Assembly (NCBI GenBank): GCA_963632375.1
Contig: CAVGUB010000111.1
Location: 15,913-79,912, forward strand
Reading direction: 5' to 3'
DNA from: Phocaeicola dorei
GTDB lineage: Bacteria > Bacillota_I > Bacilli_A > RFN20 > CAG-826
Length of the DNA: 64,000 nt
The notes under the pieces were generated by a model. The model was not told the DNA's origin, searched no databases, and saw only the letters and a program-made list of their open reading frames with translations. Shown piece by piece: positions 5,140-14,894 of this stretch (the first letter of the stretch is position 1; each line of letters starts with the position of its first letter). The position numbers were made by a program, and so were the translations under genes.

Positions 5140-5934
5140 ATGCAGATCACTTATGATGCTTTAATGTTAGGCAAACCAACCATCATTAAGGATAAACAAT
5201 TTCTTGCAACTAAGGATTATGTAGAACCTTTCTTTGAGTTTTTTAAATCTTTAACAGATAACTTTGAAATTCATGTAGAAATGCCAGAACAGGTTACAGG
5301 TTCAATTGATGCTAAAGATATTACATATAATAAAGTATGGTGTCAGGCTATTTTACCTCTAAATACTCAGTATTATGATCCAAAATTTGAGTATAATGAA
5401 GTATATGGTTTGATTTATTCTCTCGATGCTAAAATTCCAGAGATTAAATACTATCGAGCATATCAACACAAGACATTCAAAAATCTTTGTGTATTTGAAC
5501 CAACTTGGATTCAAACCCAAGAATTGAAACCTGAAGTAAAATATGATTATAATTTTAAAGAATTGTTGAGTAAACCAGAAACATTTTCTTCAAAATTAAA
5601 AAGTATTAAAAATACTTTCATAAAGCCAAATGAGTTAACCCCACTATTGGGTAAACTTATTGAAAAGTCATTACTTTATGATTATCAAAGTATTTCGAGT
5701 AAAGTTCAAATTGCATCTAAAGATATAGTTAAAGCATATCGTTTGGTAACATTGAAACCAACATCTAATTATTATGTTGATTCATCTACTGAAGGTTCTT
5801 TACATAACTTTTATTCTGCAGTTTGTTCACAAATAACTGAAGGTAAAGATATTATTTATAGATTTGAGAAAACCATTCTTGTAGGAATATTATTTGGAAT
5901 TATTAAATATGAGAGTAATAACAAAGCGGAATAA
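5140..5934 (+). CDS. hypothetical protein (264 aa)
   Basis: Uninterrupted ORF with ATG start and TAA stop; its 3' end overlaps the nrdD start. Confidence 0.7.
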   Translation: MQITYDALMLGKPTIIKDKQFLATKDYVEPFFEFFKSLTDNFEIHVEMPEQVTGSIDAKDITYNKVWCQAILPLNTQYYDPKFEYNEVYGLIYSLDAKIPEIKYYRAYQHKTFKNLCVFEPTWIQTQELKPEVKYDYNFKELLSKPETFSSKLKSIKNTFIKPNELTPLLGKLIEKSLLYDYQSISSKVQIASKDIVKAYRLVTLKPTSNYYVDSSTEGSLHNFYSAVCSQITEGKDIIYRFEKTILVGILFGIIKYESNNKAE

Positions 5935-8155
5935 AGAAGTAGAAGAATTTAATTTAGATAAAATTATACTTGCAATTAATAAAGCGTTTAGAAGTTCCGG
6001 ATTTGATACATGGGTTAATGAAGATAAAGTTGATGTCTTTGAAAGAATAAATGAACTTTTAATCGAATCTATAAATAAACTTTATGAAAGCAAAGACGTT
6101 GTTAATGTAGAAGACATTCAAGATTGCGTTGAAACAATTCTAATGCAATGTAAATGTTTTTCTGTTGCCAAGAGTTATATTCTTTATAGAGAGAAACATA
6201 ATGAAAGTCGATTTATCCAAGACAGATTGGATTATATGGACAAATATACTTCATCAGGAGATAATGCAGCAAGTTCTTCTGAAACAGATGCTAACGCAAA
6301 TGTTGCAATGAAAAATGTTGCAAATCTAGAAGGTGAAGTATACAAAGTACAAAATAGACTTGTTCAAAGAACAAGAATGAAGAAACGACTAAAAGAAATG
6401 TTTCCTGAAGTTGCCAGCGAATATGTCAAAGATTTGGAATCACATATTATTTATGCACACGATGAGGCAAGTTCACCAACAGTTAAAAACTACTGTATGG
6501 CAGCAACTCTATACCCACTTATGGTTGAGGGAACAGGAAATATTGATGGTGTAACACCAACTCCTCCAAACGATATTCAATCATTTAGTGGACAGGTTAC
6601 CAATTTAGTATTTCTTCTTTCATCTCAAGTACGTGGTGCTGTAGCTTTGGGTGATTATTTTGTAGCATTGAATTACTATGTAATTGCAGAATTTGGAAAA
6701 GATTGGTATAATCGTTTGAATGAAGTTACCACAACTAATACTTGTACAAAACAACGTACAATAAAAGATGCTATACGAAAAGGTATGAAACAATTTATCT
6801 ATGGAGTATCTCAACCAGCTGGTAATCGTTCATATAATTCACCGTTTAGTAATCTTAATTTCTTTGATAGTAATTATTTTGCAAGTATTTTCGATGAATT
6901 TCGTTATCCAGATGGCACTAAACCAGAATGGAAAGCGATTGATTCTTTACAAAGAATTTTTCTTGAACTTCATAGAGAATTGCGTTTAATTAAACCTTTG
7001 ACTTTTCCGGTAACAACGATGTGTTTACTAACTGATGGTAATGATATTGTTGACAAAGAATATAAAGAATTGTGTGCAGAAGAACTTTCTAAAGGAAGTA
7101 GTTTCTTTGTTTATTTAAGTGATTCTGCATCAAGTATCTCAAGTTGTTGTAGAGTTCGTAATGAAATTTCAGATAACACTTTTAGTTCTACAACAGGTTT
7201 GACCGGAATTATGACCGGATCTTCTAACGTTATCTCATTGAATTTCAATAGAATAGTACAGAATTGGTATAATTATATTTCTTGTGATGTTGAAGCTTGT
7301 GATAAGATAGGTAAAGCATCTCCAGAGTTTATTGGAAGTATTTTGACAACTGATAAAGAACTACAACAATCTTTAAAAGATTATTTGATTTCAATTCTAG
7401 AAAGAGTTTATAAATATCAAATTGCTTTTAAATCACTACTGTATGATATGGAAGACAAAGGTATGTTTTCTAGTTCAAATGCAGGATATATTTATACCAA
7501 AAAGCTCTTTAGTACAATTGGATTTATTGGATACTGTGAAGCTGCAGAATTTCTTGGCTATAATGTCAATTATAATCAATCTTATATAAAATTCGTACAA
7601 TTGTTATTGAGTACAATTGAGGAACAAAATCGAATTCATTCAATACATGATAAAAAACGTCCATGTATATTCAACAGTGAAGGTATCCCTGGAGAACAAT
7701 TAGCTGTTAAATTTTATAATTGGGATAAAAACGATGGTTATAAAGTTCCAGAAGATCAAAACTTATATAGCAGTTATTTCTTTAAACAATGGGATGATAA
7801 AATTTCTGTTCTAGATAAATTACGTTTACACGGAAAAGAAATTGCATCATATTGTTCAGGTGGTCAAGCCGCACATATTCATTTGGATTCACATCCATCT
7901 AAAGAACAATATTTACATTTACTTGAATTTAATGCTAAAAACGGAGTTAGTTATGTTGGATTCAATATTCCTATTAGTGAATGTAAAGATTGTGGACATG
8001 TAGTAAATGCTCCAATTAAAGAATGTCCTATTTGTGGAAGCAATCATATCGATTATTGGATAAGGATTATTGGGTTCCTTCGACCTTTAAGTTCTTATAG
8101 TAACGAGCGATATAAAGAAGCAAATAAAAGAATTTTTTCACATATTAAAGATTAA
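5909..8155 (+). CDS. nrdD: anaerobic (class III) ribonucleoside-triphosphate reductase
   Basis: ATG at 5909 begins an ATP-cone (MRVITKRNKEVEEFNLDKI). There is a C-terminal Zn-ribbon (CKDCGH ... CPICGS) followed by the glycyl-radical motif RIIGFLRP. The protein is long (748 aa) and contains no TGA. Confidence 0.9.
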   Translation: MRVITKRNKEVEEFNLDKIILAINKAFRSSGFDTWVNEDKVDVFERINELLIESINKLYESKDVVNVEDIQDCVETILMQCKCFSVAKSYILYREKHNESRFIQDRLDYMDKYTSSGDNAASSSETDANANVAMKNVANLEGEVYKVQNRLVQRTRMKKRLKEMFPEVASEYVKDLESHIIYAHDEASSPTVKNYCMAATLYPLMVEGTGNIDGVTPTPPNDIQSFSGQVTNLVFLLSSQVRGAVALGDYFVALNYYVIAEFGKDWYNRLNEVTTTNTCTKQRTIKDAIRKGMKQFIYGVSQPAGNRSYNSPFSNLNFFDSNYFASIFDEFRYPDGTKPEWKAIDSLQRIFLELHRELRLIKPLTFPVTTMCLLTDGNDIVDKEYKELCAEELSKGSSFFVYLSDSASSISSCCRVRNEISDNTFSSTTGLTGIMTGSSNVISLNFNRIVQNWYNYISCDVEACDKIGKASPEFIGSILTTDKELQQSLKDYLISILERVYKYQIAFKSLLYDMEDKGMFSSSNAGYIYTKKLFSTIGFIGYCEAAEFLGYNVNYNQSYIKFVQLLLSTIEEQNRIHSIHDKKRPCIFNSEGIPGEQLAVKFYNWDKNDGYKVPEDQNLYSSYFFKQWDDKISVLDKLRLHGKEIASYCSGGQAAHIHLDSHPSKEQYLHLLEFNAKNGVSYVGFNIPISECKDCGHVVNAPIKECPICGSNHIDYWIRIIGFLRPLSSYSNERYKEANKRIFSHIKD

Positions 8156-8655: not shown

Positions 8656-8849
8656 TGTATATTTGGCTTATCTTTTCCATTTTATGTTTTATTAGATGTA
8701 TATTTTATTTAAAATCTGGATTAAAAGATTATAAACTGTACTATTCTATATACAAATCTAAGTTTCTTTTAGTTTTGATTTGTTTTTTCGAGGTAATGTT
8801 GTATTTAACCCTTAGTTTAGTTGGTTTATATTATTTTATTATTGGATAA
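8655..8849 (+). CDS. small membrane protein (64 aa, two hydrophobic segments)
   Basis: Track ORF with hydrophobic stretches (IWLIFSILCFIRCIF and LLVLICFFEVMLYLTLSLVGLYYFII); TAATG junctions on both sides. Confidence 0.5.
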   Translation: MYIWLIFSILCFIRCIFYLKSGLKDYKLYYSIYKSKFLLVLICFFEVMLYLTLSLVGLYYFIIG

Positions 8850-8965
8850 TGAAAACTGGAAAAAGAAAAATTCATTTAAGAAAATTTAAAGACTTTAAAC
8901 GATGATGAAAGTCTTTAACAAGTTATGAAAAAGATAAAATTTTAAATGGAACAAAAAGAATTTAA
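8849..8965 (+). CDS. small basic hypothetical protein (38 aa) with two in-frame TGA
   Basis: The ATG overlaps the upstream TAA. It reads MKTGKRKIHLRKFKDFKR-WW-KSLTSYEKDK under code 4. Speculative. Confidence 0.3.
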
Positions 8966-9098
8966 AGTTGATTATATGGATTTCAATGGAGAGGTAAATG
9001 AATTGTACTTCAAAACTTTGTATAATGCCATAAAATATATAGAAGACAACAATTTATTTGCCTCCATTGAATTTTTAAATAAACCTTTAAATAAATAA
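8946..9098 (+). CDS. small hypothetical protein (50 aa)
   Basis: ATG 8946 to TAA 9096; fills an otherwise unannotated gap. Confidence 0.35.
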   Translation: MEQKEFKVDYMDFNGEVNELYFKTLYNAIKYIEDNNLFASIEFLNKPLNK

Positions 9099-9102
9099 AA
9101 TT

Positions 9103-9501
9103 ATGGGATTGGATAATGGATTCCTTATTCGAAAGATGAATAAGGAAGATATGAAAAAAGCTCCTTATTATAAGGAGAGCTGGTATAACCCAGAATCAGA
9201 ATCATTTGAACCTATTTATTGGAGAAAATGTTATAATCTTCGTGAAGCTGTATTTAGAGTTCTTCATGGGGAAAGAAACGATGTTTATGAGTATCAAGTA
9301 AAATCTAATGATATTCCTGAATTAATTGAAAATTTGAGACCATTCTTGAATAAGATTTATTGGGATAATCACGATGATTGTATTTGGGAATATGATGAAA
9401 TGTTTGACGAAATGTATAGGACGTTAGTATTCCTTGAATGGTTCCAATCTTATTATAAAGAACATCCTGAAATTGAAATGGTCTTTTACGATTCATATTA
9501 A
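9103..9501 (+). CDS. hypothetical protein (132 aa)
   Basis: Uninterrupted ORF; its TAA overlaps the nrdG ATG (TAATG). Confidence 0.7.
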   Translation: MGLDNGFLIRKMNKEDMKKAPYYKESWYNPESESFEPIYWRKCYNLREAVFRVLHGERNDVYEYQVKSNDIPELIENLRPFLNKIYWDNHDDCIWEYDEMFDEMYRTLVFLEWFQSYYKEHPEIEMVFYDSY

Positions 9502-9998
9502 TGTTAAAATATACAGATACAATGGTCACATTTAGTGAATTTCCAGATGAAATTTCACTATGTATAAATATTTCAAATTGTCCATGTAAATGTCCTGGTT
9601 GTCATTCTAGTTATCTTGCTGAAGATATCGGTGAGATACTAGATACAACTAGTTTGAAAACATTACTAGATAAGAATGAAGGAATTACTTGTTTAGGATT
9701 TATGGGTGGAGATAATTCTCCTAAAGAAGTTTCAAAACTAGCAGAATATGTTAAGAACAATTACAACATAAGAGTTGGTTGGTATTCTGGTAGACAAGAA
9801 TTATCTCCAGATATAGATCTCAAGTATTTTGACTATTATAAATTAGGTCCTTATGTCGAAGAATTTGGCCCTCTTAATAATCCAAAAACAAATCAAAGAT
9901 TTTTTGCACGAGGTTCATTGCTTCATAAAATGGATGCAAATCCAATTGTCTTTTATGATATCACCGACAAATTTTGAGTAAATGATAAAAATTTATAG
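9501..9998 (+). CDS. nrdG: anaerobic ribonucleotide reductase activating protein (radical SAM)
   Basis: CPCKCPGCHS cluster near the N-terminus, as in NrdG activases. A TGA at 9975 lies 7 codons before TAG 9996. Under code 4 the protein ends at 9998; if this TGA terminates, the end is 9977. Confidence 0.85.
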
Positions 9999-10197
9999 AA
10001 AAGAAGGTTGGATTTTGAATCCAAAAGACAATGTTGTAAATAGTATTTTGCAACGTTGTGAAAGTAATGATGGAATTTGTCCATGTAAACACCCCGATAA
10101 TGATGGGGATTTACATTGTCCATGTGAAAGTTATAGATTAAGAGATAAATGTTGTTGTTCTTTATATATTAAAGAAAATGGAAATATGGATAATTAA
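9982..10197 (+). CDS. ferredoxin-thioredoxin reductase catalytic-subunit-like protein (FTR/FDR-like, 71 aa)
   Basis: The CPC ... CPC ... CCC spacing (GICPCKHPDNDGDLHCPCESYRLRDKCCCSLY) matches the CPC-CPC-CxC cysteine signature of FTR catalytic subunits. Confidence 0.6.
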   Translation: MIKIYRKEGWILNPKDNVVNSILQRCESNDGICPCKHPDNDGDLHCPCESYRLRDKCCCSLYIKENGNMDN

Positions 10198-10369
10198 TTA
10201 CACAGATAATTGTGTAGATAAATATGTTGTTCCTGAACAAGAAAATGTTCAAGAATATATCTATAATAGTTTGAACTATGAAGGTAAAGATATATCATGG
10301 ATTTCAGATGATAAACCTATAGTTCGAAATACTTATTATTGGACAAAAGAAGGAATTAAAAAATCATAA
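10178..10369 (+). CDS. hypothetical protein (63 aa)
   Basis: ATG-initiated ORF overlapping the previous gene by 20 nt; TAA stop. Confidence 0.5.
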   Translation: MEIWIINYTDNCVDKYVVPEQENVQEYIYNSLNYEGKDISWISDDKPIVRNTYYWTKEGIKKS

Positions 10370-10370
10370 T

Positions 10371-10802
10371 ATGAAAGTTAAAATTGTAAATAAATCAAAT
10401 CACAGACTTCCAGAATATGCAACATCTGGAGCTGCTGGAATGGATCTTAAGGCAAATATTTCAGAACCCCTAGTCTTGAAACACGGAGATGTTCAAGTAA
10501 TACCTACAGGTTTGCATGTAGCAATTCCGGAAGGATATGAAATACAAATTCGTTCAAGAAGTGGGTTGGCTGCAAAACATAAAGTGTTCTGCCTTAATTC
10601 TCCAGGAACCATAGACGTGGATTTTACAGGAGATGTAGGTGTGATCCTGGCCAATTTTGGTCAAGAAAATTTTGTCGTAAATCCTGGCGATAGAATTGCA
10701 CAAGCCGTTCTTAATAAAGTAGAACGTATTGAATGGGATGAAGTAGCTTCTCTAGATAGTACTGATAGAGGAGATGGTGGATTTGGTAGTACTGGAATTT
10801 AA
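10371..10802 (+). CDS. dut: dUTP pyrophosphatase (trimeric dUTPase)
   Basis: Canonical motifs: AAGMDL, RSGLA, PGTIDVDFTGDVGVIL, GDRIAQ, RGDGGFGSTG. Confidence 0.9.
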   Translation: MKVKIVNKSNHRLPEYATSGAAGMDLKANISEPLVLKHGDVQVIPTGLHVAIPEGYEIQIRSRSGLAAKHKVFCLNSPGTIDVDFTGDVGVILANFGQENFVVNPGDRIAQAVLNKVERIEWDEVASLDSTDRGDGGFGSTGI

Positions 10803-10814
10803 AAATTAAATATT

Positions 10815-11306
10815 ATGGATTGGATTAATTATTTGAAAAAACTTGGATTTTCTGAAAGCGATCTTAAAAATATGTCATTTAAATATTCTGAAAACGGTAT
10901 TCCTGTTATCAATATTGAAAATGGTGTAGATATGCTTAAAAAAGCTGATGATACAATTACAGATGCTTTCAGAAATGCTAAATTGAAATCTGAAGAAAGA
11001 CCTGCTTATGATGTTGAAGAAAAAACTTCTAATTTTAAACCTATTTCCGAAGAGTTTAAAGAAGAGAATACATTTAAATCATATAGTGGTATTACTATGC
11101 TAACACCTAATGATTTCTTGCTTAACAATTATGCAGGAAAAACAATGCTTGGGACAACTACTCCACTTAATTTTGAGTGTTTGGATAAAAATAACTGTAT
11201 CCTTCCCGGTATTACAGATAAGCAACTTGCTGAGGTCCTTCTTCTTAGGAACAAAACAAATCCAGATATTAAAGAAACTTTATTAGATCTTCTTGACTTG
11301 CTTTAA
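10815..11306 (+). CDS. hypothetical protein (163 aa)
   Basis: Uninterrupted ORF followed by a hairpin terminator. Confidence 0.7.
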   Translation: MDWINYLKKLGFSESDLKNMSFKYSENGIPVINIENGVDMLKKADDTITDAFRNAKLKSEERPAYDVEEKTSNFKPISEEFKEENTFKSYSGITMLTPNDFLLNNYAGKTMLGTTTPLNFECLDKNNCILPGITDKQLAEVLLLRNKTNPDIKETLLDLLDLL

Positions 11307-11313
11307 AATATAT

Positions 11314-11341
11314 AGCTAGGGAGAAATCCCTAGCTTTTTTA
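11314..11341 (+). terminator. rho-independent terminator
   Basis: AGCTAGGGA-gaaa-TCCCTAGCT 9-bp stem followed by TTTTTT, 8 nt after the stop at 11306. Confidence 0.7.
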
Positions 11342-11343
11342 TT

Positions 11344-11496
11344 ATGAATAAACAAGAATTTTTTAATTCATTAACAGACAAACAAAAATCGTATCTGCAA
11401 TTTCTTCTAGATGAGAGCTATCAAAATGGATATGACGCAGGTACTTTAAAAAATTATTACAATGAGTATAGTAAAACGAATTTCACTTTTTGCTAG
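11344..11496 (+). CDS. small hypothetical protein (50 aa)
   Basis: ATG 11344 directly after the terminator and TAG stop at 11494; overlaps the ligase start. Speculative. Confidence 0.3.
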   Translation: MNKQEFFNSLTDKQKSYLQFLLDESYQNGYDAGTLKNYYNEYSKTNFTFC

Positions 11497-12649
11497 AGAC
11501 TCAAAAGGAAAGATTAGACAGATAAATATTACATGTGATTGGAACGAACAATTCCAATTTTATTCAATTAATCGAGAATCAGGATTAAAAGGCGGTAAGT
11601 TTATAACTCATACTCCACTTGAAATTAAAAAGGGAAAAGTTAAAAGAACTATTTCTCAACAAATGGAACTTGAATACAATAGTCTTGTAAAGACATATCT
11701 TGATAAAGGGTATATTGAAGGAGATGTTTCAACTATTGAAAAAACTCTTCCAAAAAACAAAACAAATCAAGAAGGTGTTATAAAACCAATGCTTGCAAAG
11801 TTAATTCAAAGTGTTCCAAAAAGTACTTTAGATAAAGTAACTCATTGATATTCAAGTCGTAAGATAGATGGAGTGAGGGCTTTACTCTATATGAAAGACA
11901 ACACTTTACACTTTGCTTCAAGAGGTGGTGGTGTGTATGATTATGCAACTTCGCATATTCGTAATAATCTAAAGTTGATTGAATACTTTAAACAAAATCC
12001 AAATCTTGTTTTGGATGGAGAATTATATGTCTTTGGAAAATCTCTACAAACATTATCAGGTTGTGCTAGATTAGAAGAAGGAGAAATCCCATTTAAATTG
12101 CAGTATTATATATATGATGTTGTAGATCTTGATAAAACTTTTACAGAACGATACAAAATAATTCAAAAAGTAAAACAAGATTTAAATTTAGGTTTTGATC
12201 CCAATAAGACGTTTAATGATTTTGATATTTTCATTCAAATTCTTCCACAAGAATACATTGTAAACGATGAAAAAACAATGTGGAATCTTCATAATCAATA
12301 TGTATCTGAAGGTTGGGAAGGTGCAGTATTAAGAGATCCTACTAAGAAATATAACCCAGGTGCACGTGATATGATTAAATTAAAATCTAGATTGGATTCA
12401 GAATTTGAAACAATCGGATATGAATTTGGTTTACGTGGAATAGAAGATATTGTCTTTAAAATGAAGACAAAAGACGGAAAAGAATTTAAAGCAAAACCAG
12501 TTGGATCAAAAGAAGTAAAAGAATCATTATTCAATCATATAAATGATATAATTGGACAAATGGCAACTTGTACATATTTTTATCTTTCTGATGATGGCAT
12601 TCCACTTCAACCTGTTTGAAAATGTGTTAGAAATAAAATTGATATGTAA
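11462..12649 (+). CDS. ATP-dependent DNA ligase (395 aa), in-frame TGA at 11846 and 12617
   Basis: Track ORFs 11462..11848 and 11873..12619 share a frame. The junction reads THWYSSRKIDGVRA, so the adenylation motif I (KxDG) lies just after a TGA. DGELY, EGAVLR and IKLK motifs follow. It ends at TAA 12647, overlapping the next ATG. Confidence 0.85.
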
Positions 12650-12948
12650 TGAAGGATAAAAAATTTTCTAAAGAAGAACTAAAAAAATATATAATAAATT
12701 ATAATAAACTTCAAGATGATGTTTATAAAGCAAGTTCTGTTTTAGGTCCTATTTTTGATTCCCCAATTTTTACAGGTTATGAACTAATAATTCATAACCT
12801 TTTAGTAAAAATGTACGGTGATTTAGGTGCAGACCTTCTAGAAGAATATATTTTTAAGCAAATAGATATGGGATTTGACACCCTCTTTGATATTTTATCT
12901 TCTGAAGAATATGACTCAGACCGAATTAGATATACTGATTCAGAATAA
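12649..12948 (+). CDS. hypothetical protein (99 aa)
   Basis: Uninterrupted ORF with ATG start and TAA stop. Confidence 0.6.
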   Translation: MKDKKFSKEELKKYIINYNKLQDDVYKASSVLGPIFDSPIFTGYELIIHNLLVKMYGDLGADLLEEYIFKQIDMGFDTLFDILSSEEYDSDRIRYTDSE

Positions 12949-13492
12949 AAATATATTTTATATATACAATCTAAAACCAATAACCCCAGAGAATAAAGAT
13001 GAGTATCTTATTGTAGTAAATAATGGATATAAATTAAATACAGGTTCTGAGGGAATTATTGTTTTGGAATTAAAAGATTGGTTTGAACACAGTATTAAAA
13101 GTGATTTACTTGCTTGAATTTGTGCTTGTCTTAATAAGAAATACATTATTAAAGAACATGTCAAATTACTTTGTCAAACCAAACCTCTTGAATTGCGTAA
13201 AGAAATAGATAAAATAAAATCTGTTTTAAATATGACCCCAGAAGAATCATATTATTTTCTGGTTAATCTAACTTACGCAATTCAAATAATTGAAAACCAT
13301 AAAATTACGAAATATAATGTGCTTAAAGATTATTATAAATCAGTAAAATCTTTAAGTGATCCAAAAGAAATTACAGAGTGTTTTATGGTGTATTACGAAC
13401 CTTTAAAAAAGTTGTTAGGTAAATATACTGATGAACTTTTACTTAAAGAGAAAATAAAGAAAATAAGTGTAAAATTGAAAAATGATAAGTAA
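12911..13492 (+). CDS. hypothetical protein (193 aa), in-frame TGA at 13115
   Basis: Track ORFs 12875..13117 and 13193..13492 share a frame. The gap was read in frame with only one TGA. The first ATG is at 12911. Confidence 0.55.
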
Positions 13493-13736
13493 AATTTTTT
13501 TCTTTCATGCTTCTTGATGTGGTCCTTGTAGACTCTTAGAAAAAGAATTAAAGGACTTTTCTTATTTACCTATTGATGAGTTTGATGCAGATGAAAATGA
13601 AGAACTCTGCAACAAATTCAACATTAGAAGTCTCCCTACTTTGGTTTTTATAAATTCAGATGAACAAGAGATTGGACGTAATGTTGGATTTATAAAAACA
13701 TCTGATTTAATCGAAAAAATAAAACAATACGATTAA
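13482..13736 (+). CDS. thioredoxin (84 aa); the active-site Trp is encoded by TGA at 13515
   Basis: Absent from the track because of the TGA. It reads MISKIFFFHAS-TGA-CGPCRLLEKEL ... FNIRSLPTLVFI, i.e. WCGPC plus the cis-Pro loop (LPT) of thioredoxins. Confidence 0.85.
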
Positions 13737-13891
13737 TGAAATTTAAATATGAAGTTACAAATCCCGGTGTAGATACTAGAATCGTAACTGTTACAGCAAA
13801 TACAAAACTAGAAGCTGTGCAATTACTCGAAGAAATGTATCCACGCAATGGAGGTTATGAATACAATTTTATAAATAATGAAGATAATTAA
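13736..13891 (+). CDS. small hypothetical protein (51 aa)
   Basis: The ATG overlaps the thioredoxin TAA (TAATG); TAA stop at 13889, overlapping the thyX start. Confidence 0.35.
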   Translation: MKFKYEVTNPGVDTRIVTVTANTKLEAVQLLEEMYPRNGGYEYNFINNEDN

Positions 13892-14894
13892 TAGTTCTGT
13901 TACTGTTGTAGAAACAAACCCTTCTTTAAAGGGTATTTTTGAGGCCATAGAGAGAGCCGGACGTGTTAGCTATGCGAGTGTAGGTACAAGGTATTTTCGT
14001 GTCGAAAATAAGCCTGAAAACCAGCAAATTTTAGAGAAATTGAAATCTAATTCAGAAATACTTTGTAAAGAAGGGCCATTCTTCGATAAAGCATATTATG
14101 TGTCCATTCCACATAAGTTAATTACAAATTATCCTGAACTTCTTGCACATAAAGAAGAAAGTCGTTCGGAGAGTTCATATTACGAGAATGTTACATCTGA
14201 AGCATTTGTCAATATGATTAAAAAGAATGGGCATTTAAGTGTATTAGAATTTGGTACAGTTTATCTTTATTTGGATAAACGTGATGCTGATGATGTTATG
14301 ATCGATAAATACGATCATAATCCATATTCCAAAATTAATTTTGATGATAAAGATAATTTGTATATTACTACTAATATGCGAGTTATTGTAGAAAACAATT
14401 GGGAAGAGGATTTGAAATATCTTTGTACACCTTGTGTTTATCATGAAAAAAGAATTACTGCGGAATTCGTTTGTTCAAGATCTGTATCACACGAACTTGT
14501 AAGACATAGAAGTCTATCTTTTATTCAACAAAGTCAAAGATATTGTGCATATAATGCTCAAAAATTTGGTGGAAATGTTAGTTTTGTTTTACCTAGTTGG
14601 CTAAAAGATTCTAATAAACCATATAGTAAAATGTGTGTTGAAAGTAGATTGTGGTATCGAGCTATGATTGCTGCAGAAAACACTTATATGTCTCTTTTAA
14701 AAGAAGGTAGTAAACCACAATTTGCAAGAGAAGTTCTTCCTAATTCAACATCTACTATAATTGATGTATGTGGTTTTGAAAGTGATTGGAAACATTTCTT
14801 TGAATTGAGATGCTCACAAAGAGCACATCCTGATATAAAAGTTTTAGCTGATAACCTTTTAATAGATTTTAAATCACTTAATTATGCAATTTAA
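13878..14894 (+). CDS. thyX: flavin-dependent thymidylate synthase
   Basis: ThyX signature RHRSLSFIQQSQRY (RHRxxSxxxxSxR); 338 aa with no TGA. Confidence 0.9.
   Translation: MKIINSSVTVVETNPSLKGIFEAIERAGRVSYASVGTRYFRVENKPENQQILEKLKSNSEILCKEGPFFDKAYYVSIPHKLITNYPELLAHKEESRSESSYYENVTSEAFVNMIKKNGHLSVLEFGTVYLYLDKRDADDVMIDKYDHNPYSKINFDDKDNLYITTNMRVIVENNWEEDLKYLCTPCVYHEKRITAEFVCSRSVSHELVRHRSLSFIQQSQRYCAYNAQKFGGNVSFVLPSWLKDSNKPYSKMCVESRLWYRAMIAAENTYMSLLKEGSKPQFAREVLPNSTSTIIDVCGFESDWKHFFELRCSQRAHPDIKVLADNLLIDFKSLNYAI

Follow-up and report, generated by a model that had tools for sequence, protein, structure and literature searches.

A short thioredoxin gene with an in-frame TGA codon

We analyzed a window of 64,000 nucleotides, which corresponds to bases 15913-79912 of contig CAVGUB010000111.1 (hereafter C111; 143,369 bp, 30.8% GC). 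The element under study is a small plus-strand gene at window positions 13482..13736, which encodes a short thioredoxin when TGA is read as tryptophan. From the data given below, we estimate a probability of about 0.7 that this gene encodes a functional short thioredoxin, with TGA read as Trp, that likely re-reduces the class III ribonucleotide reductase (RNR) of the same phage. The features of the gene are as follows, in window positions.

13482..13736, plus strand: short thioredoxin gene, 84 codons in the code-4 reading, ATG at 13482, TAA at 13734-13736
13515..13517, plus strand: in-frame TGA at codon 12, the W of WCGPC and the sole Trp codon of the thioredoxin gene
13518..13529, plus strand: CGPC redox-active dithiol motif with Cys13 and Cys16, kept in 35/35 family members
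13635..13637, plus strand: Pro52 (LPT), counterpart of the thioredoxin cis-proline in the loop before beta-3; the column is invariant and corresponds to the conserved Pro in thioredoxins of the PDB

The code-4 translation of 13482..13736 is MISKIFFFHASWCGPCRLLEKEL...FNIRSLPTLVFI...IEKIKQYD, a protein of 84 amino acids that begins with MISKIFFFHAS-W-CGPCRLLEKEL and contains SLPTLVFI. The tryptic peptide over codon 12 is predicted to be IFFFHASWCGPCR, with Trp at position 8. Under table 11 the reading frame closes after 11 codons, and a C-terminal stump of 31 amino acids (13641..13736) is left in the thioredoxin frame.

An earlier reading of the window from its letters alone (the sequence-only reading) had proposed a hidden short thioredoxin at this place, to be checked by aligning the code-4 translation to Pfam Thioredoxin and to structures. 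Both alignments gave significant matches, and the proposal was borne out. The protein scored 50.6 bits (E=2e-13) with Pfam PF00085 (Thioredoxin), for which the cut-off is 23.5, and it also matched the PHROG 22 family 'thioredoxin domain' at 7e-11, and 250 thioredoxin-type chains in the PDB at E<=0.01. An AlphaFold2 model built with 35 family members as input reached a mean confidence (pLDDT) of 95.9 and a predicted TM-score (pTM) of 0.86. Its topology is E-H-E-H-E-E-H (beta-alpha-beta-alpha-beta-beta-alpha), with four strands and three helices, and a helix at residues 14-22 follows from W12-C13-G14-P15-C16. In a Foldseek search of the PDB the best 50 matches were all thioredoxins (TM 0.76-0.87), including Bacillus subtilis TrxA with its ribonucleotide reductase and thioredoxins with ferredoxin:thioredoxin reductase (FTR). 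The Pfam alignment starts at position 25 of the 103-position profile, indicating a short-form thioredoxin: the N-terminal beta1-alpha1 of the thioredoxins of ~105 residues is missing, and the fold is not the classical five-stranded form. More than 100 clusters of homologues with 84-88 amino acids were found in gut metagenomes, while searches of IMG/VR with the thioredoxin and ThyX returned only relatives at 30-43%, none of them with WCGPC.

Orthologous genes were found by exact-protein look-ups, and their loci share the order ligase, two small open reading frames (ORFs), thioredoxin, small ORF, ThyX. The dN/dS ratio among thioredoxin orthologues (79-83% identical) was 0.15-0.20, suggesting that the frame is under purifying selection. 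This bears on three other possibilities: pseudogene decay, a mistake in the assembly, or expression from a different frame that overlaps the ORF. Such an explanation would fit a standard-code frame that stops after 11 codons and a public orthologue called as a stump of 56 amino acids (P0004). The constraint on the frame, the identical TGA in two independent assemblies (L013 and L017), the many clusters of full-length homologues, the confident model and the same TGA pattern across C111 all argue against it. The sequence-only reading had named a competing frame as a possible objection; we looked for one, and the overlapping ORFs in other frames were at most 52 amino acids long and had no family matches. 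Its statement that no ORF covers 13493..13877 needs a small correction: a downstream ORF of 51 amino acids (13736..13891) is open even with standard decoding. We regard a pseudogene, an error or another frame as very improbable. Taken together, these results identify 13482..13736 as a genuine short thioredoxin gene under purifying selection, with predicted reductase activity.

The contig and its genetic code

C111 has a terminal overlap of 27 bp and is thus probably a complete circular assembly. It encodes a crAss-type terminase and portal, and homologues of its large terminase subunit (TerL), 55-70% identical, number in the hundreds and lie on contigs of 143-180 kb. By these features C111 is classified as a zeta-group crAss-like phage, a group for which the family Echekviridae has been proposed (PMC12386605). 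Several TerL homologues of the zeta type (P0026, P0029, P0031, P0116, P0119 and P0120; 990-1135 amino acids) carry LAGLIDADG or Hint domains and are intein-bearing, as reported for the group. Reassignment of TGA to Trp or of TAG to Gln, mostly in late genes and together with suppressor tRNAs, has been published for zeta phages (PMC7886860, PMC12386605), and gut phages with code 4 have been described more generally (Borges et al., bioRxiv 10.1101/2021.08.26.457843). In the zeta literature TGA=Trp was inferred from alignments, and the metaproteomic validation that we saw concerns TAG->Gln only.

The pattern in C111 is of this kind. ORFs of at least 100 amino acids covered 0.61 of the contig under code 11 and 0.91 with read-through of TGA, and the ORFs of C111 contain 345 in-frame TGAs. 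In 142 greedily chosen ORFs, TGA made up 0.77% and TGG 0.59% of codons, and the sum of 1.36% is a normal Trp content. In the late block on the minus strand, 258/365 Trp codons were TGA, compared with 8/71 in the replication and nucleotide module of 23 genes, where the genes with TGA include those for thioredoxin, ligase, NrdG and the deoxynucleoside monophosphate (dNMP) kinase.

To see what TGA stands for, we compared aligned codons. Codon 12 of the thioredoxin gene is TGA in the orthologues L013 (83% identical) and L017, and TGG in L014 (79%) and L015/L016 (51%). We then aligned all C111 ORFs with the loci of relatives at codon level by tblastn and obtained 101 TGA positions with a partner codon. 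The partner was TGA at 41 positions, TGG at 24, a Tyr codon at 10, a Phe codon at 8, and a Gly and a Cys codon at 1 each, so that 65/101 sites pair with TGA or TGG and 18 with Tyr or Phe. This distribution is recognizable as the substitution spectrum of tryptophan. The TerL homologues were also considered as an independent test of the code, and the close relatives were all TGA-recoded themselves.

The phage has a tRNA that could read the codon.

Contig positions 2745-2817, ~13.1 kb before the first base of the window: tRNA(UCA), a full-length Rfam tRNA match (55.3 bits) with discriminator G73

This tRNA is of the ordinary type I with a short variable loop, and the label 'SeC' given to it by ARAGORN comes from the anticodon alone. 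A G73 discriminator fits bacterial tRNA-Trp, and tRNA-Gly and tRNA-Cys normally have U73. Near the tRNA(UCA) gene, and also upstream of the window, lies a gene for a chaperonin of the Cpn60/GroEL family (L018, 4356..5954, plus strand; Cpn60_TCP1 E=2.7e-55) that contains no TGA.

If TGA stood for another residue, be it Gly (code 25), Arg, Cys or Sec, the motif would become, for example, GCGPC, CCGPC or UCGPC. Code 25 is used by some gut phages according to the same preprint (bioRxiv 10.1101/2021.08.26.457843), the motif position holds Y or H in 4/35 relatives, and the ARAGORN label could be taken as a sign of Sec. All the comparative results run the other way. Orthologues have TGG at this very codon, a single Gly and a single Cys occur among the 101 sites, and Trp would make up just 0.59% of codons if TGA were left out. 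The type-I structure of the tRNA, together with the 345 in-frame TGAs, excludes Sec, and its G73 speaks against Gly and Cys. The Pfam score of the protein was also lower with G, C or R at codon 12: 50.6 bits with W, 47.2 with Y, 44.3 with C, 43.8 with R and 43.0 with G. We consider a residue other than Trp hardly credible. That TGA is Trp in this phage, and not Gly, Sec or Cys, as the sequence-only reading had held, is well supported, and it is the comparative data that decide it.

The same reading had called codon 12 the cleanest single-site diagnostic in the window. W is indeed preferred in the Pfam score; the preference over C, R and G amounts to ~6-8 bits (roughly 80-190-fold), so that the single site alone favors Trp moderately. 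It had also described the Trp as an invariant and catalytic residue. Among the 35 relatives, the residue before CGPC is W in 31, Y in 3 and H in 1, and 'catalytic' is overstated: catalysis falls to the two Cys of WCGPC, and the Trp is simply part of the motif.

Neighboring genes and the class III ribonucleotide reductase

The thioredoxin gene lies in a tightly packed module on the plus strand, where its start overlaps the upstream stop and its stop overlaps the next start. The module contains genes for a MazG-like pyrophosphohydrolase, an exonuclease, NrdD, an NrdG-like activase, a Cys-rich protein of 71 amino acids, dUTPase, an ATP-dependent ligase, thioredoxin, ThyX and dNMP kinase. The genes that matter here are the following.

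5894..8155, plus strand: nrdD, class III RNR with ATP-cone; ATG at 5909 is the likelier start; no TGA
9501..9998, plus strand: nrdG-like activase, radical SAM; one TGA, W159 of 165; 56% identical to nrdG of phage MT835492.1 (L027)
9982..10197, plus strand: FTR catalytic subunit homologue of 71 amino acids with CPC...CPC...CCC; no TGA; 56-61% identical to PhiCrAss001 gp5
10371..10802, plus strand: dUTPase, well supported
12875..13492, plus strand: ORF of 205 amino acids upstream of thioredoxin with one TGA; its stop and the thioredoxin start share 11 nt; kept in L013 and L014
13736..13891, plus strand: ORF of 51 amino acids, open under the standard code; it starts at the TAATG of the thioredoxin stop, and its end overlaps the thyX start
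13878..14894, plus strand: thyX, flavin-dependent thymidylate synthase, just downstream of thioredoxin in relatives

The ORF of 51 amino acids is kept at 51-52 amino acids in L013, L014 and L017 and has no family match. Code-4 calling inflates the number of antisense ORFs in this region. For instance, an ORF of 161 amino acids with 5 in-frame TGAs at 10169..10654 (minus strand), open with TGA read-through and antisense to dUTPase, is almost certainly an artefact.

Class III RNRs have been divided by the finger-loop motif at positions 328-331 and the Glu at position 495 of the Thermotoga maritima (Tm) enzyme (Burnim et al. 2022, PMC9669993). In that work the finger loop MGCR goes with formate, and enzymes with SCCR, no leading Met and Glu at Tm 495 form a clade 'likely to solely utilize thioredoxin'. 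A sentence of PMC11226230 that locates the third cysteine on beta-strand 6 raised the question whether the additional Cys of SCCR is meant, and PMC9669993 settles it for the finger-loop Cys. The best PDB match of the phage NrdD was T. maritima NrdD (1.6e-50), followed by Prevotella copri (8e-12) and T4 (5e-4); the P. copri enzyme is formate-dependent (PMC11226230). In the alignment, the finger loop of the phage NrdD is S417-C418-C419-R420 opposite Tm 328-331, again with no leading Met, and E596 (FNSEGIPGE) stands opposite Tm E495 (FNIEQVPAE), where P. copri has Leu. A Tyr-Cys pair (NYC) is aligned to Tm Y124-C125, the beta-A cysteine, and G727 to Tm G621 in RI(I/V)G, the radical glycine. The phage NrdD thus belongs by sequence with the enzymes that take thioredoxin rather than formate as reductant, and turnover with thioredoxin and without formate is predicted for it.

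We also examined the Cys-rich protein of 71 amino acids. A profile of four phage FTR-like proteins was searched against the PDB, and its 7 matches were all FTR catalytic chains (E=2.8e-5 for the best). The six cysteines of the CPC...CPC...CHC pattern line up in full between the phage FTR-like protein and these chains. Two homologues, 56-61% identical to the window protein, matched Pfam FeThRed_B (PF02943) at 4e-5. In GenBank the family is confined to crAss-like and Lak phages of Bacteroides and Prevotella.

The candidate host

C111 sits in a bin of 150 contigs, which is 85.6% complete with 5.6% contamination. By its release factor 2 (RF2; 474 bits), the rest of the bin is assigned to reduced-genome low-GC gut Bacilli (Candidatus Onthovivens / 'uncultured Mollicutes/Bacilli'). 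These contigs use TGA as a stop codon: RF2 is present, and read-through brings no gain, the ORF coverage going from 0.896 to 0.903. Among the bin contigs that we looked at were C45:1137-3458 and C115:2082-3098. The NrdD of the bin itself has MGCR, lacks the Glu, and is of the formate type. At this completeness, a PF00085 search of the bin found no thioredoxin besides that of the phage, and no thioredoxin reductase (TrxB) passed the family cut-off of 343 bits, the highest score being 81. The bin likewise showed no family A DNA polymerase, which probably reflects incompleteness. Bacilli of the genera Holdemanella and Faecalibacillus are the predicted hosts of low-GC opal-recoded zeta phages (PMC12386605). 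If the bin is the host, there would be no host redoxin system for the phage RNR, which would account for the thioredoxin and the reductase-like protein encoded by the phage.

Proposed role of the thioredoxin

We propose the following sequence of events. Codon 12 would be read as Trp by the phage tRNA(UCA), presumably charged by the tryptophanyl-tRNA synthetase of the host; if suppression failed, the gene would give only a peptide of 11 residues. The thioredoxin would re-reduce the active-site disulfide of the oxygen-sensitive class III RNR of the phage, and would in turn be re-reduced either by the phage FTR-like iron-sulfur protein with host ferredoxin as the probable electron source, or by a host reductase.

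The RNR is the likely client since the phage NrdD is of the thioredoxin type. The relative L014 keeps the whole set, NrdD (SCCR and Glu), NrdG, FTR-like protein, dUTPase, ligase, thioredoxin and ThyX. In MT835492.1 (L027), an unrelated human-gut phage, a thioredoxin of 87 residues with WCGQC (9584..9847) lies between nrdD and nrdG. The nrdD of this phage (5992..9180) has an intein between the two finger-loop cysteines (...SLSSC|C...HN|CRLQN...), in the catalytic heart, and splicing would leave SCCR; the Glu is present. Short thioredoxins also occur in other phages with a Tm-like NrdD, namely bajarodcaudo virus 1 and the Vibrio phages phiKT1024 and pv27.

Several observations weigh against this role or against single links of the proposed chain. 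In zeta relatives the thioredoxin gene is tied most tightly to thyX, to which it is always adjacent; in the branch with thioredoxins of 87 amino acids a gene like that of serine hydroxymethyltransferase (SHMT) is adjacent; and in the window thioredoxin is 5 kb from nrdD. The FTR-like protein of 71 amino acids has CCC for CHC, as also in L014, with Cys in place of the FTR His, although the homologues in crAss001 and cr106_1 keep CHC; and searches with Pfam FeThRed_B (PF02943) gave no match in the genome or in this protein. In PhiCrAss001, no NrdD match was found at E<=1e-30. The phage tRNA(UCA) is closest to the tRNA-Trp of the bin (70% identical), but a tRNA-Asn comes equally close, so that similarity by itself does not decide its identity. 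On the host side, the absence of thioredoxin and TrxB is not proven because the bin is 85.6% complete, and we found no CRISPR array, spacer or short match linking the bin to C111, so that the bin as phage host, linked by binning alone, is plausible but unproven.

Some of these points would fit a real thioredoxin with TGA=Trp and a different client, acting as a general disulfide reductant, in the thymidylate cycle (thyX, SHMT-like gene), or as an accessory factor of a DNA polymerase, as host thioredoxin does for phage T7. In every zeta relative seen, the thioredoxin gene stands immediately upstream of thyX with frames that overlap or nearly do so; the SHMT-like gene is directly upstream of it in L111, and probably in L015; and short thioredoxins occur in many phages, some of which had no Tm-like NrdD in our searches, for example phages of Streptomyces and Acinetobacter. 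Against these points, we know of no thioredoxin requirement of ThyX or SHMT; Pfam DNA_pol_A and DNA_pol_B had no matches in the genome, leaving C111 with no detectable family A polymerase to assist; and the phage NrdD carries the markers of thioredoxin-only enzymes, while L027 has its short thioredoxin inside an nrdD-nrdG operon. We regard another client as unlikely, though it deserves serious weight, and prefer the RNR.

The L111 locus (8745..12567 of a zeta contig of 171 kb) has features of its own. Besides the SHMT-like gene directly upstream of its thioredoxin of 87 amino acids, only a C-terminal NRDD fragment was called nearby. Its thyX seems to be split into two Thy1 fragments by an ORF of 240 amino acids, perhaps through insertion of an intron or a homing endonuclease.

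Meaning of the TGA codon

In the proposed chain, TGA is absent from NrdD and the FTR-like protein, and the single one of NrdG comes seven codons before the end; thioredoxin alone has an early TGA, at an essential position. A regulatory reading is thus conceivable: the phage would bring a full reducing chain (host ferredoxin to FTR-like protein to thioredoxin to thioredoxin-only RNR) into a reduced-genome Bacilli host that lacks thioredoxin and TrxB and has a formate-type RNR, and the TGA for Trp12 would hold the chain back as long as the suppressor tRNA is not expressed. We find this combined scenario rather doubtful. A conserved regulatory device was rejected as the main explanation of the codon, as the orthologues with 79% and 51% identity use TGG. 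Most likely the TGA at codon 12 is neutral and synonymous with TGG, and carries no special signal; neutral drift is suggested because close orthologues write TGG and the two codons are interchangeable in the genome.

The codon has a practical consequence, since gene callers that use the standard code miss or shorten this thioredoxin gene. The public protein P0004 (L017, 795..965), a standard-code call, is a truncated 'thioredoxin' of 56 amino acids; the TGA-bearing orthologue behind it matches that of L013 exactly. Missed and truncated calls of this kind lead to an under-count of thioredoxins and other small genes in recoded phages. Codon 12 also offers a convenient internal check of TGA=Trp in this phage lineage. 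With the thioredoxin, a plausible phage-borne electron supply for anaerobic deoxynucleotide synthesis would be complete, and the phage may need such a supply of its own as no thioredoxin system is apparent in the candidate host.

Comparison with known systems

The recoding, its bias to late genes, the suppressor tRNA and short phage thioredoxins are already known, and the thioredoxin described here is an ordinary example of them. Compared with the opal-recoded zeta phages, C111 has the same GC content of ~31%, a length of 143 kb, many TGAs in the late genes for virion and lysis but few in those for early functions and replication, its own tRNA(UCA), a host candidate with the standard code, and the gene set of RNR, Thy1, dUTPase and dNMP kinase. 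Nothing essential differs; here, a few replication and nucleotide genes also carry TGA. Thioredoxin is not mentioned in the two zeta papers PMC7886860 and PMC12386605, and a literature search for the pairing of an RNR, a small redoxin and a mini-FTR in phages found no discussion of it and gave cyanophage papers only.

Among phage short thioredoxins (PHROG 22; Aeromonas phage 31 ORF109c, crAss-like cr108_1, Streptomyces phages), the window protein shares the length of ~75-90 residues, the CxxC, the minimal fold and the context of nucleotide genes. It is at most 40% identical to the annotated phage thioredoxins of GenBank and differs in that its Trp is written TGA. T4 NrdC is a thioredoxin of 87 residues with a glutaredoxin-like motif that serves the T4 reductase. 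The role that we propose is analogous, whereas the window protein has the classical WCGPC.

The FTR-like protein of 71 amino acids has its nearest described counterpart in PhiCrAss001 gp5, annotated as 'putative ferredoxin-thioredoxin reductase' (PMC6235969), to which it is 56% identical. Unlike the window protein, gp5 (L026, 2271..2468) lies inside an array of 23 tRNA genes and keeps CHC. In the PhiCrAss001 lineage this gene thus seems not to be bound to a phage RNR and may have its own role or history, as shown by its place in the tRNA array and the missing NrdD match.

The phage NrdD resembles the thioredoxin-dependent class III RNRs of Neisseria bacilliformis and T. maritima in the SCCR with no leading Met, the Glu and the beta-A Cys (Wei et al. 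2014, as described in PMC9669993, PMC4493059 and PMC4390871). For Methanosarcina barkeri, a chain from ferredoxin through FDR and an NrdH-like protein to NrdD3 has been characterized (Wei et al. 2015, cited in PMC5704485). The phage likewise encodes a small redoxin near its NrdD, together with a Cys-rich protein of the FTR/FDR kind. In contrast to this chain and to the known thioredoxin-dependent RNRs, the phage genes are spread over 8 kb rather than joined in one operon. Its redoxin is a true WCGPC thioredoxin and not NrdH-like, its Cys-rich protein has CCC for CHC, and its ribonucleotide reductase, with the Glu present, is NrdD2-like rather than NrdD3.

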